Below are positions 5,308 through 42,041 of a stretch of 64,000 nucleotides of DNA, one piece after another. The DNA is taken from IMG/VR virus record IMGVR_UViG_2588253764_000003. One strand, written 5' to 3'. This stretch comes from a virus (Duplodnaviria > Caudoviricetes). The notes beneath the pieces were generated by a model, which was given only the letters and a program-made list of their open reading frames with translations, searched no databases and was not told the origin of the DNA. The first letter of the stretch is position 1. Each line of letters starts with the position of its first letter. Both the position numbers and the translations under genes were made by a program.

Positions 5308-5574
5308 ATGCTTAATAAAGTGATTTTAATTGGTCATTTAGGTGCAAATCCAGAAAGCAAAACAATGTCATCTGGCGCCGAGGTGGTCAATTTTCGTATA
5401 GCAACATCCGAAAGCTATACAGATAAGGCTACCAATAAGAAAATAGACAAAACAGAATGGCATTCCATTGTGGTGTTTAATCCACATCTTGCAAAAATAG
5501 CGCTTCAATATCTCAATAAAGGCAGATTCGATATAATATCAAAAAATACAATGAAGTCAATAGCTTGTTTGTAA
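5308..5574 (+). pseudogene. ssb: Single-stranded DNA-binding protein, 5' part (interrupted at codon K-G by element 1)
   Basis: MLNKVILIGHLG..TEWHSIVVF..LNKG is the SSB OB-fold N-terminus; sequence after 5525 comes from the element. Confidence 0.92.
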
Positions 5575-6874
5575 TTATTTTATATGAATCCACTTAAGAA
5601 TCCATCTTTTTATGCATGATTCATTTGACTATTTTTTATATAAGATTGCCATGTATGAATAGATCATAAAAAGCAAATCATGATGCAAATATTATAACGC
5701 ATATAAACGTTCAAATGAAATGAAAAGCAGTTATCACTCATAACAGTTTATAAATCTTATGATACGTTTTTATCACAGCACAAATCACATTGTTTAAAAT
5801 TTAGTCGTTTAGAATTGTCGATAACACACGTTTAAAGATTATATCTTATTTTAAAGATTGGATTGTTAATCACATAAAAGAGTAAATTAACGTTCGCCAA
5901 AATTGGCGAGCGCAAAATAGAGAGTTGTTATAACAGCATCGTCATAACACCGAACATTTTAAAGATTGCATAATTGCATAAAGGATTTAAAGACACGATT
6001 GATTTTATAACCACGGTATTTTTTTACCGGGGTAGAAATAAAGGTAATGAAAATCACAATGTTATATCTTATGAAATGAAAAGCCTTTTAATGAATATAG
6101 TGCATAGCTAGTTTTGAAGAACGGAACTGTTCGCTTCCATAAAAAAATGGAGGCGCATAATGCCATAGAAGTAGAATACTATATACCTTAGACATGGTAT
6201 AAAAAACGTTTTAAAAGTTATCGTTTTAAAATATGAAACCAAATGAGATCTCCTCAAATTTGAGGGCATCTATTTTAGACAAAGATAAGCAAGTAAAATT
6301 CAAAACCGTTGTAACATCATAAGGCATAGGATTTACTTAATTTTGCTAGCCAAATAGAGCGATTAATTTGCAAAGAAGCTTTGTTTAAAATACGCTTATT
6401 ATGAAAGCCTTTCTAAATGAATGTTTAAACGTTTGAAACTAATGTTTATAATAATTTTTAAAACCTTCCATTTGATAAAAGCGGTTGTTGATTTATTTTA
6501 TGAGAGCTTGTTTTAAAAACCAGCGTTTGCAAATGTAAAAAGAACGTTTTTATAAGACATTCATTTAAGATGCATTTTCTTTTGATTGAATTGATAAAGC
6601 TACCAAACGTTTTAATATGTTTTGATTTTAGAAAATGCGTTATTTGAAATTCACTCAGCTCGATTTTGAGCTTAGTATATTGAAACGTTTTAAAAGAAGC
6701 ATTGTGATCATGGGCTTTGTTTTAAAAGCCCCCCTCACAAAGGAGGGTGTTATGATTGATACGTTTGAGATTAACAAAAAGCGTTTATAGGCTCTCTCAT
6801 TCAAAAGAGTGATTAAAGATCATACGCATCATTTACATTCCTTTTGATAAGTTTTCATATCTTGAATAGAGCGC

Positions 6875-38786: not shown

Positions 38787-40095
38787 GATTGTACCAAAAC
38801 TTATCCCTATTTTTGCAGGGGATGCTTTGGTACGCGCGGCTTGGGGTGGACGAGGGTCTGGTAAAACAAGATCATTTGCCTTGATGGCTGCTTTAAAAGG
38901 CTATCAATTTGGTATGCAAGGGATATCGGGGACTATTCTTTGTGCACGTCAGTTTCAAAATTCGCTAGCAGAGAGTTCATTGGAGGAGATTAAGCGGGCG
39001 ATTGAAGCCCATGACTTTTTAAGCGAATATTACAAGGTTGGAGAGGCTTCGATTAAGTCAAATGATGGTCGTATAGCTTTTCAGTTTTCTGGACTGGACC
39101 GTAATATAGCCAGTATCAAATCCATGGGGCGTATTTTGCTCTGTTGGGTTGATGAGGCAGAGCCGGTAACAGAAACAGCTTGGCAGACGCTTATACCAAC
39201 TTTGCGTGAAGAGGGAGATGGGTGGCGAGCAGAGTTATGGGTGACATGGAACCCATTGCGAGATAATGCACCGGTTGAAAGTCGGTTTCGCTTTTCAGAC
39301 AATGAAGCCATTAAGCGTGTAGAGATCAATTGGTCAGACAATCCGAAGTTTCCCAAGATCTTGAATGAAGCGCGGCTTGATGATTTGAGAAACCGCCCCG
39401 AGACCTATAAGCATATATGGGAAGGGGCTTATCTTACAGCGGTTCAAGGTGCTTACTATCAAAAAGAAATGTTGGCAGCGGAGCAAGAGGGGCGGATAGG
39501 GCGTGTTGCGCGTGATCCTTTAATGCAGATACGCGCCTTTTGGGATATTGGGGGCACAGGAGCCAAGGCAGATGCGACAGCGATATGGATAGCGCAATTT
39601 GTAGGCAGAGAGATTAGAGTGCTTGATTATTATGAAGCACAAGGACAGCCGTTATCAGAGCATATCGGTTGGTTGCGTCACAATGGCTATGAGAAGGCAC
39701 TGATGGTCCTCCCCCATGATGGTGCGACCAGAGACCGTGTGCACAATGTGAGTTTTGAGAGCGCTTTAAATGATGCGGGTTTTGAAACGCAGGTCATTCC
39801 TAATCAAGGGGCTGGGGCTGTCAAAATGCGAATAGAGGCAGTGCGACGTATTTTGCCTTCAGTTTGGTTCAATGAAGAGACGACTGTAGCAGGGCGTAAG
39901 GCACTGAATTGGTATCATGAGAAATGGGATGAGAAGCGTAATATTGGTTTGGGAGCAGAACATGATTGGTCCAGTCATGGTGCAGATGCTTTTGGATTAA
40001 TGTGTGTGGGGTATGAACAACCGATGCAGAGACAAAAGAGACAAGCTTATAGCGGTAGAGAAGCCTATGAGAGTACGTCATGGATGGCAGAATGA
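38767..40095 (+). CDS. terL: Phage terminase large subunit (PBSX-like)
   Basis: Walker A GGRGSGKT, Walker B WVDEAE, TWNP, nuclease motifs WDIG and SHGADAF. Confidence 0.92.
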   Translation: MTTRQIKIVPKLIPIFAGDALVRAAWGGRGSGKTRSFALMAALKGYQFGMQGISGTILCARQFQNSLAESSLEEIKRAIEAHDFLSEYYKVGEASIKSNDGRIAFQFSGLDRNIASIKSMGRILLCWVDEAEPVTETAWQTLIPTLREEGDGWRAELWVTWNPLRDNAPVESRFRFSDNEAIKRVEINWSDNPKFPKILNEARLDDLRNRPETYKHIWEGAYLTAVQGAYYQKEMLAAEQEGRIGRVARDPLMQIRAFWDIGGTGAKADATAIWIAQFVGREIRVLDYYEAQGQPLSEHIGWLRHNGYEKALMVLPHDGATRDRVHNVSFESALNDAGFETQVIPNQGAGAVKMRIEAVRRILPSVWFNEETTVAGRKALNWYHEKWDEKRNIGLGAEHDWSSHGADAFGLMCVGYEQPMQRQKRQAYSGREAYESTSWMAE

Positions 40096-42041
40096 TGGAT
40101 GATGAAGAGCATTTAGAAAAAGAACATAATGCATCAGATCTGTCAACAGAAGGTTTGTTTCGCAAGTTAGTCAGTTGGTACAAAGAAGATGTGGAGCATG
40201 TGAACAAATGGCGTGAACACGCAAGGGAGGATTTTCAATTTTACAATGGTGATCAGTGGAATGATCAAGATTTAGCGGCTTTAAAAGAGCAACGCCGCCC
40301 CGTTATGACCTTTAATCGCATTGCCCCACTTGTGAATGCTGTTGTGGGTTCAGAACGCAACAATAAGCGCGAAGTGCAATTTATTCCCCGTCAAATAGGC
40401 AAGGCATTGCCCAGTGAATTGCTTACAGGGGCAGCAGAATGGTTTCGTGATATGGCACATGCGGAATACGCAGACAGTGATGCTTTCCAAGATGCTGTCA
40501 TCTGCGGTATGGGGTGGACCGATACGCGGCTTGATTACGAAAATAGTCTTGATGGTGAACCGGTCATTACGCGTTTAGACCCTTTGAAAATGGTTTGGGA
40601 TAGTGCGGCAGTGCAACCGAATTTAACGGATGCACAACGCATGTGGTATGTAGACCGCAAGCCATTAGACGTAGCCAAGCAAATGTTTCCCAAAGCTCAT
40701 TGGAGTGAACTTAGTGCGGATTGGGCGCGTGATGGGGCTGCTTATGAAGGGGTTCATCATAATGATCTTGAAGCTTACGATGATGAGAAGGGCATTGATG
40801 TTGAAAACGGTCGACGGATGGTCACACTAGTGGAATGCCGTTGGTTTGAAAGCGAGAGATATTACAAGGCGCCCGATTTGGAAACGGGTGAACTTCGTGA
40901 TTACAGCGAAGAGGAGTTTAAGCAGCTCCAATGCATGATGCCCGATATCCAAGGGGCGGCTTTCAATAAAAAGGTTGTAAAACGCGCCTTTTTAGGGAGA
41001 AAACTGCTTGAATGCCCTGATCAACCTTTGGTTCCAGCGGGTCAATTGGGTTGGGAGTGTATCACGGGGTATTTTGATAAGATAGAACGGCAATTTTATG
41101 GGGTTGTCCGTCCGACAAAAGACCCACAACGGTGGGCGAATAAATATTTTAGTCAGGTGATGCATATTCTCAATAGCCAATCCAAAGGTGGGATTATGGC
41201 TGAGAGGGGTGCATTTGAAGATGAGAGAGAAGCTGTAAAGAGTTGGAGCAGGGTAGATAGTATTACGGTTTTAAAAAATGGCGCTTTGGCAGGGGGTAAG
41301 ATACAGCCCAAACCCGTAGCACAGTTTCCAACCGGTTTTTTCCAACTGTTTAATGAAGCGAAAGAAGCAATTAATCAAGTTACAGGTCTCTCACCAGAGT
41401 TTATTGGAACGAGAGAAGTTTCACAAGCAGGGATTTTAGAGGCACAACGGCGTCAATCCAGTCTTAACCTGCTTGCTTGTTTGTTTGATGGTTTGCGTTT
41501 GTATCGCAAAAGGCAGGGCAAGATCATTTTGCACCTGATACAGAATTATTTGTCTGATGGTCGCTTGGTACGGATATCGGGTGAGGAGAATGCGCAATAT
41601 ATTCCGTTGACCCGTGAAGCGGTAATGAGTGTTGATTATGATATTGTGGTGGATGATGCGCCCACCAGCCCGAATGAGAAAGAGCGGACCTTTGGCATTA
41701 TCACGCAATTATTACCGTTGCTTCAAAATGCTGTTACACCGGATATTATGCTTGATTTGCTTCGTTACTCACCCTTGCCTGCGTCTCTGCTTAATCGTGT
41801 GAGCGAGAAGATGCAACAGCAGCAAATGGCACAACAAGCCCAGCAACAGCAAATGAATCCGGAACAAGAAATGAAGTTGCAAGAAAAGCAGCAGGATATT
41901 GCTGCTAAAAGTCAGATGCAACAGATGGATTTGCAAGGCAAGCAGATTGAATTGGTCATGCGTCAAGAGAGAGCAAAATTGGAAGCGGAATTGATGCAAC
42001 AACGCATTATAAATAAAAATACAATAAAGTCAATATGTTGA
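40092..42041 (+). CDS. P22-like portal protein, C-terminally truncated by element 3
   Basis: FYNGDQW..RPVMTFNRI and YDIVVDDAPTSP motifs, Q-rich barrel region; the last residues INKNTIKSIC come from the element's left end. Confidence 0.85.
   Translation: MMDDEEHLEKEHNASDLSTEGLFRKLVSWYKEDVEHVNKWREHAREDFQFYNGDQWNDQDLAALKEQRRPVMTFNRIAPLVNAVVGSERNNKREVQFIPRQIGKALPSELLTGAAEWFRDMAHAEYADSDAFQDAVICGMGWTDTRLDYENSLDGEPVITRLDPLKMVWDSAAVQPNLTDAQRMWYVDRKPLDVAKQMFPKAHWSELSADWARDGAAYEGVHHNDLEAYDDEKGIDVENGRRMVTLVECRWFESERYYKAPDLETGELRDYSEEEFKQLQCMMPDIQGAAFNKKVVKRAFLGRKLLECPDQPLVPAGQLGWECITGYFDKIERQFYGVVRPTKDPQRWANKYFSQVMHILNSQSKGGIMAERGAFEDEREAVKSWSRVDSITVLKNGALAGGKIQPKPVAQFPTGFFQLFNEAKEAINQVTGLSPEFIGTREVSQAGILEAQRRQSSLNLLACLFDGLRLYRKRQGKIILHLIQNYLSDGRLVRISGEENAQYIPLTREAVMSVDYDIVVDDAPTSPNEKERTFGIITQLLPLLQNAVTPDIMLDLLRYSPLPASLLNRVSEKMQQQQMAQQAQQQQMNPEQEMKLQEKQQDIAAKSQMQQMDLQGKQIELVMRQERAKLEAELMQQRIINKNTIKSIC

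Follow-up and report, generated by a model that had tools for sequence, protein, structure and literature searches.

What becomes of a prophage when several of its genes are each cut in two by a long and similar piece of DNA, and are such genes lost for good or held in reserve? The question is raised by a 64,000-nucleotide stretch of Caudoviricetes DNA (IMG/VR record IMGVR_UViG_2588253764_000003), in which the genes for the single-stranded DNA-binding protein (ssb), for a protein in the position of the small terminase subunit (TerS) and for the portal are split in this manner. The window, by which we mean the whole of this stretch, corresponds to bases 32,001–96,000 of one virus record of 127,254 bases (the contig), and positions are given in window coordinates unless marked as contig. 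The original prediction saw here three satellites embedded in one prophage that lock replication, packaging and head assembly until they excise. We find at least five related inserted elements of 15–26 kb on the contig (E1 to E5), each within a different phage gene, and we consider it probable, with some reserve, that they belong to a helper-embedded, satellite-like family of Bartonella islands of that size which integrate site-specifically into phage genes. The same islands were noted as a repeat by Berglund et al. 2009, under the name of 'fha-repeat'.

Results

Five related elements in five phage genes

As the original prediction had it, three homologous copies lie in the window, each in a different phage gene: repeat families start at their left ends (5542, 23233 and 42015) and recur all along the elements, and blastn with E2 as query finds five copies over the whole contig, two of them beyond the window. 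Five left ends and four right ends stand on this one contig; the four of the five elements with both ends visible are bounded by direct repeats of 8, 13, 15 and 7 bp (E1 to E4, Table 1), the first two being the short repeats predicted for E1 and E2. Four of the five copies are antisense to the gene that they interrupt. E3 runs past the window, with its integrase end at contig 98,481–100,342 and the portal C-terminus next to it; the gene split by E4 leaves a 233-aa N part that matches phrog_24697, and E5 entered a Phage_capsid_3 gene at about position 280 of 376. The sites are thus phage genes, themselves split, and neither tRNA genes, of which the window has none, nor intergenic DNA. The name TerS for the ~110-aa gene split by E2 is a label taken only from its position, in which it overlaps the start of terL: the gene matches phrog_11043, a family without assigned function, and gave no Pfam match and no significant PDB sequence match (best E 0.38). 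It is called terS-like below.

Could the repetition be an assembly artefact, or the segmental duplication of one island by homologous recombination? E5 and E2 are 99.5% identical over 2.4 kb, which could confuse assemblers, yet identity between copies ranges over 75–99% and they differ by 8–25% over most of their length; the flanks and the direct repeat are particular to each copy, and the same type of insertion recurs in dozens of independent assemblies. We find this explanation hardly credible.

Empty sites and selection on the split genes

For all four genes split by elements with two visible ends, uninterrupted orthologues with contiguous N and C parts occur elsewhere in Bartonella: 6 loci have an unbroken portal gene, 10 an unbroken scaffold-position gene (close relatives in 7 cases), 4 an unbroken ssb and 15 an unbroken terS-like gene. 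At the empty terS-like sites of relatives the 13-bp core is present once, with flanks as here. Such comparisons indicate that the arrangement consists of insertions, not rearrangements. When an element and one repeat copy are removed in silico, the halves join in frame and match the natural uninterrupted orthologues. The claim that precise excision would rebuild in-frame SSB and TerS proteins stands as far as the frames go, with TerS kept as a positional label.

All halves of the split genes on the contig are open frames, with zero stops and zero frameshifts. Against uninterrupted orthologues, dN/dS is 0.05 for the portal, 0.07–0.18 for the scaffold-position gene, 0.11–0.19 for ssb and 0.11 for the terS-like gene; it is 0.03–0.06 for the unsplit terL. 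The predicted lack of decay in the split genes is borne out by these values, which reflect long-term constraint only, since the dS of 0.66–0.99 between the compared phage copies makes a recent relaxation of selection invisible.

Where related integrases insert

A scan of the collection gave 247 relatives of the integrase, of which the best 78 loci were kept. All 78 are from Bartonella, mostly rodent-associated species, and the host of the contig is for this reason taken to be a Bartonella. In 75 of the 78 loci the start of the integrase gene is preceded, at a distance of 137–174 nt, by a conserved right-end motif, and the DNA directly beyond this motif differs in nearly every locus. There were 71 usable junctions on the integrase side, after three loci without the motif, three with N at the junction and one with a flank of 15 nt had been dropped.

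Phage-type genes account for 50 of the 71 junctions, where an integrase clade inserting mostly at non-phage sites would have spoken against the original prediction. Twenty-seven of the 50 lie in genes homologous to the contig's own phage genes: the portal is struck at residues ~78, 127, 215, 252, 596 and 645, plus once in reverse, terL at residues ~90, 190 and 369, ssb at three positions and the terS-like gene at two, the other targets being the scaffold-position gene, phrog_15385, phrog_26522 and a recombination exonuclease. The remaining 23, cluster mates counted, are in further ORFs with PHROG matches, namely Ant/antirepressor with its RNA leader, an HTH regulator, a tail fibre, three tail proteins, an endolysin, a DNA methyltransferase and nine PHROGs without assigned function. 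Beyond these, six junctions lie 0.4–0.7 kb from housekeeping genes, one is in fhaB-like DNA, one is in a helicase gene that may belong to another element, and 13 have no assigned target. The 71 junctions and the four of the contig form at least 61 site clusters, with neighbouring terS-like and portal sites merged. Among the 50 classified junctions elsewhere, 47 have the integrase end next to the 3' portion of the gene that was hit, which makes the element antisense to that gene.

Is this a real preference for phage genes? A loose integrase in a small, gene-dense genome could leave a similar picture by survivorship, if only insertions into dispensable prophage DNA persisted. Sites as diverse as these (~60, with 23 variants of a right-arm heptamer described below), the six junctions near housekeeping genes, the one in fhaB-like DNA and an apparently off-target copy in locus L007 agree with that idea. 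It accounts poorly for the 50 of 71 junctions in phage-type genes, for an orientation bias that puts the integrase end at the target's 3' part in 47 of 50 cases elsewhere and four of five here, for the reuse of the same sites across species by closely related elements, and for targets that, judged by eye, mimic the arms of the attP core. Intergenic or pseudogene DNA should also be equally tolerable, and none could be recognised among the resolved junctions, although the 20 that are unassigned or housekeeping-adjacent may include some. Absence of a real tropism is, in our opinion, quite improbable.

The L007 copy (~1256) has a right end with the ssb-type core AAAGGCAG joined to unrelated DNA, an uninterrupted homologue of which matches that core at 6 of 8 positions; it looks like an off-target integration. 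In a B. acomydis contig (L018), terL carries a right end at residue ~90 and a left end at residue ~369 (positions ~4259 and ~5153), therefore two insertions in one gene. Seven junctions (L036, L054, L057, L066, L068, L071 and L081) appear, by eye, to be inside an sRNA-Xcc1-like RNA gene. Targeting of tRNA genes was considered and rejected: besides the window, none was found at the junctions of 19 loci (the six housekeeping-adjacent and 13 others).

Attachment sites

The layout of the attachment sites was read by eye from the element ends. At the right end, AAATCAA is followed by a heptamer of the form TRYNTTR, of which there are 23 variants; at the left end a fixed ACAATAAAGTCAA stands ~30 nt past the start of the repeat. 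The attP that may be reconstructed from them has imperfect inverted arms of 7 nt, 13 nt apart, with the central 7 nt as the putative crossover segment. The arms read ATATCTT/AAGATAT-like in E1 and E4 and ATGCATT/AACGCAT in E3, and are less clear in E2. The central 7 nt are also where the direct repeat begins in three of the four pairs (E1, E3 and E4), whereas that of E2 starts 2 nt further in and its copies differ at one position of the central segment; the 13- and 15-bp repeats are longer because the target also matches the far arm. Uninterrupted target homologues often match the near arm as well, the ssb site doing so at 17 of 21 positions. Since the arms and especially the crossover segment vary between copies, each copy would have its own target, and the four different central segments of the four complete co-resident copies would keep these from recombining with one another.

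A doubled motif, GAATCCAC-N4-GAATCCAC, lies 53–60 nt inside the left end in all three copies of the window (5586–5605, 23277–23296 and 42059–42078); the window has four matches to it against 0.39 expected by chance, and it is a candidate arm-type binding site. Targeting by a guide RNA or by single-stranded DNA, considered on account of the many sites, was rejected, as the ends fit the arm-crossover-arm core that is classical for tyrosine recombinases, and the targets mimic it (by eye); no unusual mechanism has to be invoked. Mean identity is 87.5% among integrases with a common right-arm heptamer and 86.1% among the others, a difference reached in 0 of 1000 shuffles; integrase sequence as the determinant of the site was set aside as a weak link only, relatedness inflating the shuffle test.

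Signs of integrase activity and the apparent age of insertions

Intact integrase ORFs of at least 370 aa number 72, with dN/dS of 0.03–0.25, and on this evidence we take the integrases to be functional. Elements at the same site in different genomes have an integrase dS of 0.09–0.12, against 0.40–0.77 for the phage gene halves that flank them (53–82 codons, hence noisy), so that the elements look younger than the divergence of the phages. The pattern fits repeated site-specific insertion rather than inheritance alone. The integrases of E4 and of loci L037 and L052 are 99.2–99.7% identical (dS 0.04–0.11) at three different sites.

Gene and RNA content of the islands

From its left end E1 comprises a non-coding end, four beta-solenoid genes, an sRNA-Xcc1-like RNA, a Type ISP restriction-modification (R-M) gene, a DUF3987 remnant, an excisionase-like gene and the integrase. 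The integrase stands at the right end, reading inward, and its domains (Arm-DNA-bind_3, Phage_int_M and Phage_integrase) are those of a P4-type tyrosine integrase. Three further copies on the contig are 84–86% identical to the first. Among 50,697 phage records the best match, in Sulfitobacter phages, reaches 41.6% identity, and every match, Escherichia included, is below 60%; the sole structural relative, a 108-aa arm-domain entry (E 8e-4), is uninformative. The adjoining 66-aa protein matches PHROG excisionase families at E 1.5e-6 and 6.3e-5; it did not match AlpA (PF05930), and HTH_17 scored 22.5 bits, below the 27-bit cut-off. The DUF3987 gene, a 'DNA helicase' in PHROGs, is intact in E2 and E4 only: E3 lacks it, and E1 has kept its last 46 residues, positions 12108–13421 of the E2 element being unmatched in E1. 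Of the predicted core of tyrosine integrase, AlpA and replication gene, the integrase was recovered, AlpA was not, and the set is complete in two of the five copies.

The Type ISP enzymes (1652–1657 aa) match REase_MTase_IIG of PADLOC over their full length, are whole in E1, E3 and E4, and constitute the most divergent part between copies. That of E2 (29343–34330, −) is broken into a 333-aa ORF, with the nuclease and the start of the helicase, and a 1315-aa ORF, and is probably a pseudogene. Each element has 3–4 beta-solenoid genes of the YdcK type (phrog_5070/7964), none of which matched a defence gene in PADLOC, and an sRNA-Xcc1-like RNA (RF02221) precedes each array. In E3, which has three beta-solenoid genes, fhaC, fhaB and a 138-aa ORF, spanning 53438–63732, occupy the place of DUF3987. 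Further right (contig 96,401–98,358) come a 518-aa fhaB-like fragment and then a 134-aa ORF; both small ORFs match phrog_21928, and the arrangement is reminiscent of two-partner secretion loci in which an orphan C-terminal module is accompanied by small partner proteins. In E1, 1.8 kb without a match in E2 (17710–19484) replaces most of the DUF3987 gene, and its ORFs of 140 and 101 aa belong to no Pfam, PHROG or PADLOC family. No Bro domain was recognised in the elements.

Table 1. Positions of the islands, of the phage genes that they split, and of genes and RNAs in and around them.
Feature	Position	Strand	Evidence or remark
E1, 15.9 kb, in ssb	5526–21413	−	AAAGGCAG at 5518–5525 and 21406–21413
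ssb, N-terminal part, with left 8-bp repeat copy (5518–5525)	5293–5525	+	PF00436 SSB positions 1–70/104
ssb, C-terminal part, ends ...DDVPF	21414–21637	+	sequence; tblastn to uninterrupted orthologues
E2, 15.3 kb, in terS-position gene	23224–38556	−	AATAAGAATACAC at 23211–23223 and 38544–38556
terS-like gene, N-terminal part, 34 codons, ends with left 13-bp repeat (23211–23223)	23122–23223	+	phrog_11043 positions 4–30/105
terS-like gene, C-terminal part, 76 codons, overlaps terL start	38557–38786	+	phrog_11043 positions 20–105/105
terL, uninterrupted	38767–40095	+	PF04466 Terminase_3; phrog_3717
portal, N-terminal ~645 codons, ends with left 15-bp repeat (41991–42005)	40080–42005	+	PF16510 P22_portal 2–589/594
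portal, C-terminal ~33 codons	contig 100,343–100,432, outside window		follows E3 integrase end
E3, 26.3 kb, in portal	42006 to contig 100,342 (left 22 kb in window, to 64000)	−	15-bp TTGATGCAACAACGC at both ends
E4, 15.6 kb, inverted, in scaffold-position gene	contig 101,131–116,745		repeat core TATCAGA
E5, at least 9.3 kb, in major capsid gene	contig ~117,910 to contig end		right end off contig
E1 Type ISP R-M gene	11788–16746		1652 aa; Mrr-type nuclease, SF2 helicase, coupler, N6 methyltransferase and Type_ISP_C all present
E1 excisionase-like gene, 66 aa	19653–19853		
E1 integrase	20062–21261		PF13356, PF22022, PF00589
E2 beta-solenoid genes (four)	24769–27701		
E2 DUF3987 gene, intact	34875–36362		
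E2 excisionase-like gene	36790–36990		
E2 integrase	37199–38365		PF13356, PF22022, PF00589
E3 Type ISP R-M gene	47456–52414		
E3 fhaC	53438–55225	+	
E3 fhaB	55250–63295	+	2681 aa
sRNA-Xcc1-like, E1	10217–10305	−	50.9 bits, just below gathering score
sRNA-Xcc1-like, E2	27743–27830	−	50.8 bits, just below gathering score
sRNA-Xcc1-like, E3	45775–45862	−	53.9 bits, above gathering score
sRNA-Xcc1-like, the phage's own, ahead of rha and beta-solenoid genes	3123–3211	+	45.5 bits, below gathering score

The prophage and its surroundings

The order terL, portal, scaffold-position gene, capsid is that of the nearest isolated phage, Rhizobium phage RHph_Y1_10 (43,230 bp), whose portal has 53.3% identity across 100% of the query; the contig is therefore read as one prophage into which at least 82 kb of elements were inserted. 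Upstream of the window (contig 8,000–31,000) is a second phage early region in the opposite orientation, hence the record holds two head-to-head phage regions. The second region encodes an uninterrupted ssb homologue, a RecE-like exonuclease, a Bet/RecT-like protein, Ant proteins and a paralogue of phrog_15385. A 244-aa ORF (22178–22912, −) between the phage's phrog_15385 gene and the terS-like gene had no Pfam, PHROG or PADLOC match.

Discussion

What, then, would be the way of life of such islands? We propose that they move by ordinary site-specific recombination that their own P4-type tyrosine integrase would catalyse, the 66-aa excisionase-like protein probably assisting, and that nearly all of their identifiable targets would be ORFs, or a regulatory RNA gene, of one temperate phage type with a P22-like portal and a genome of ~43 kb. 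As no replacement sequence is carried, each insertion would inactivate its gene and precise excision alone would restore it. Riding in the prophage, the islands would hold its replication, packaging and head genes hostage, a kind of 'regulated gene integrity'. The defence and cargo that they bring along would be a restriction enzyme of Type ISP, to which some copies add fhaC/fhaB. The complete short elements measure 15.3–15.9 kb against 43.2 kb for the nearest isolated phage. Their interpretation as phage-gene-targeting integrative elements is supported by the direct repeats, the empty sites, the many sites in phage genes and the integrases under purifying selection; a satellite function, as locks that would open upon excision, is the best reading and a plausible one. 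One may infer that the islands would excise when the prophage is induced, depend on the phage for their transfer, be packaged in its particles and bring some benefit to the host or to themselves.

Several observations weigh against this reading. Three of the five copies are incomplete, E1 having lost DUF3987, E2 carrying a broken Type ISP gene and E3 being without DUF3987, and searches with Pfam and PHROGs recognised in the islands neither capsid-size or packaging genes nor any other late gene. The rest of the prophage, with tail and lysis, is not on the contig, so that it may be defective, and its revival would need five independent precise excisions. Five whole genomes hold 8, 3, 19, 19 and 5 integrase matches, many of them truncated or with stops. 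Six junctions (L024, L053, L055, L060, L067 and L080) have housekeeping neighbours, namely RlmJ, homoserine dehydrogenase, a solute-binding protein, dnaX, a DsbA-like protein and FtsJ; one of the 71 is in an fhaB-like gene, and 14, with the helicase-gene one, are without clear target. Through gene conversion between copies in one genome, almost identical integrases could stand at different sites with no recent move; the 99.5% identity of E5 and E2 over 2.4 kb bears on this, and the caveat also extends to the same-site dS. Lastly, public sequencing data with related sequence consist of 11 runs, all of them assembled contigs, the best of which contains a fraction of 0.40 of the words sampled. 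Among 15 of 202 joints from four of these contig sets (window 21300–40300) there was none skipping E2, which speaks neither for nor against excision, since assembled contigs cannot reveal rare junctions; one joint, from 39338 to 23233, places an element left end beside terL in another organism.

Such signs could mean that the islands are selfish, effectively permanent insertions which have knocked the prophage out, maybe to the benefit of the host, and which are now decaying, with nothing coordinately excised or packaged. The loss of the replication gene in E1 and E3 and of the R-M gene in E2 would follow from it, as would the many truncated or stop-bearing integrases in the five whole genomes, the terL copies that stop at residue 195 (residues 1–195, one genome) and the doubly interrupted terL of L018; many helpers of the enterobacterial elements discussed below likewise look truncated in the part of PMC10111431 used here. 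Against it stand split genes free of stops and frameshifts, with dN/dS of 0.05–0.19 next to 0.03–0.06 in the unsplit terL. Nor does permanence agree with 72 intact integrases under purifying selection, with same-site elements at a dS of ~0.1 against 0.4–0.8 for the phage genes, which points to ongoing insertion, or with the fact that every site is polymorphic and has empty copies. Overall we deem a mere burial ground of prophages and islands unlikely.

The satellite-like reading may also be taken further. With ~60 sites, 23 variants of the arm, and integrases that are 99% identical yet differ in site, one could imagine a rapidly retargeting hunter of phage genes, in which the integrase and the attP core diversify fast, orthogonal crossovers permit stacking, several keys are needed to unlock replication, packaging and head assembly, and the phage serves as the vehicle that spreads restriction and fhaB/fhaC through Bartonella. 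This extension is doubtful and we put it forward tentatively; were it true, the 'fha-repeat' amplification of host-adaptability genes would be a satellite phenomenon.

The consequences would be of several kinds. Helper-embedded satellites would extend from enterobacteria to Alphaproteobacteria, with a different integrase lineage, and the strategy would reach past late head genes to early replication and recombination genes, immunity RNA, tail and lysis genes, with up to five such elements stackable in one prophage. The fha-repeat, a strain-variable carrier of adhesin and two-partner-secretion genes thought important for host adaptation, would gain a concrete explanation as a mobile element. 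Besides, ~60 natural attB/attP pairs with closely related integrases would offer a ready data set on how site specificity changes in tyrosine integrases.

Comparison with known systems

Elements that interrupt a gene and act as regulatory switches are known from bacteria, such as the skin element in sigK and phi10403S in comK. The likeness lies in the interruption of a gene by an integrative element, which precise excision would undo; the difference is that there a bacterial gene is interrupted by a prophage or its remnant, whereas here phage genes are interrupted, several at once.

With P4-like satellites and the phage-inducible chromosomal islands (PICIs) of Gram-negative bacteria, the Bartonella elements share an integrase, an excisionase/AlpA-type gene, a replication gene of the primase-helicase type (DUF3987), an immunity-type small RNA region, defence cargo and a size of about one third of that of a 43-kb phage. 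They differ in that no sid/psu/delta-like, capsid-morphogenesis or packaging genes were recognised in them by Pfam or PHROGs, in attachment sites that are phage genes instead of tRNA or housekeeping genes, and in a replication gene missing from two of the four copies in which its region is visible.

The original prediction had not recognised the stacked arrangement as a described system. This has to be corrected, since helper-embedded PICIs are in print (PMC10111431) and the fha-repeat had been noted (PMC2697382); these two papers, PMC2847970 and PMC9540758 enter our comparison through parts of their text. Berglund et al. 2009 (PMC2697382) reported in B. grahamii a segment of 10–28 kb, present ~7-fold with 80–100% identity, in which the fha/hec operon lies together with clusters of three genes termed Sfi18-like, and Berglund et al. 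2010 (PMC2847970) found it variably present between strains. E3, with its 26.3 kb, fhaC/fhaB and three beta-solenoid genes, fits this description, the beta-solenoid genes being by our inference the 'Sfi18-like' ones, and E1, E2 and E4 appear to have this backbone minus fha. The difference is one of interpretation: the passages of both papers considered here treat the segment as a genomic-island repeat, not as a bounded integrative element that splits phage genes between direct repeats. In B. krasnovii, a prophage-borne tyrosine integrase, which might be a member of the island family, is the one gene under positive selection according to the part of PMC9540758 used.

The closest parallel is found in enterobacteria, in the helper-embedded PICIs (HE-PICIs) of Tommasini, Mageeney & Williams 2023 (NAR Genom Bioinform, PMC10111431). 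In the text available to us, that paper describes 491 elements at 14 sites in lambda-type late genes, with integrases that form a single clade, divided into subclades according to site; the elements read in the direction of the late genes and number at most two per helper, and induced excision was shown experimentally for one of them, HE-PICI 11capE. The word 'Bartonella' has 0 occurrences in its main text, and none of the papers listed in searches for earlier descriptions links, by title and start of abstract, Bartonella to helper-embedded elements. Both families have a tyrosine integrase with a small adjoining excisionase/AlpA-type gene, a replication gene and a regulatory RNA zone; in both, insertion breaks a prophage gene and attP carries no replacement sequence (the Bartonella repeats being of only 7–15 bp), the integrase group has repeatedly reached new phage-gene sites, a helper may hold more than one element, and many helpers look truncated. 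Set against the HE-PICI zones (int-alpA, Bro/immunity RNA, replication and late genes), the Bartonella islands have the integrase with an excisionase-like gene, the sRNA-Xcc1-like RNA and, in E2 and E4, DUF3987, with zero late or Bro genes recognised.

As far as the cited parts of that paper go, the differences are many. The ends of the Bartonella elements lack the doubled motif TGTATTGC, which in HE-PICIs flanks the attP centre at ~81 bp on the upstream and 132 bp on the downstream side; its 11 matches here have 2–3 mismatches each and are all at least 1.5 kb from element ends. Excision was demonstrated for HE-PICI 11capE, whereas the Bartonella elements are known here from sequence alone. 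Their integrase similarity follows the site only weakly, and they are mostly antisense where HE-PICIs are co-oriented. The islands are 15–26 kb long with Type ISP enzymes, beta-solenoid arrays and sometimes fhaC/fhaB, and no captured late genes were recognised. To the late head genes their targets add early genes (ssb, exonuclease, ant leader RNA, methyltransferase) and tail and lysis genes; ~60 sites among 75 junctions contrast with 14 for 491 HE-PICIs, and five copies in one prophage with at most two. With a host in Bartonella (Alphaproteobacteria) and a best phage-record match of 41.6%, membership of their integrase in the HE-PICI/PICI clade seems unlikely. It therefore seems appropriate, judging from these comparisons, to regard the Bartonella islands as a family separate from the enterobacterial HE-PICIs, alphaproteobacterial and far more diverse in its sites.

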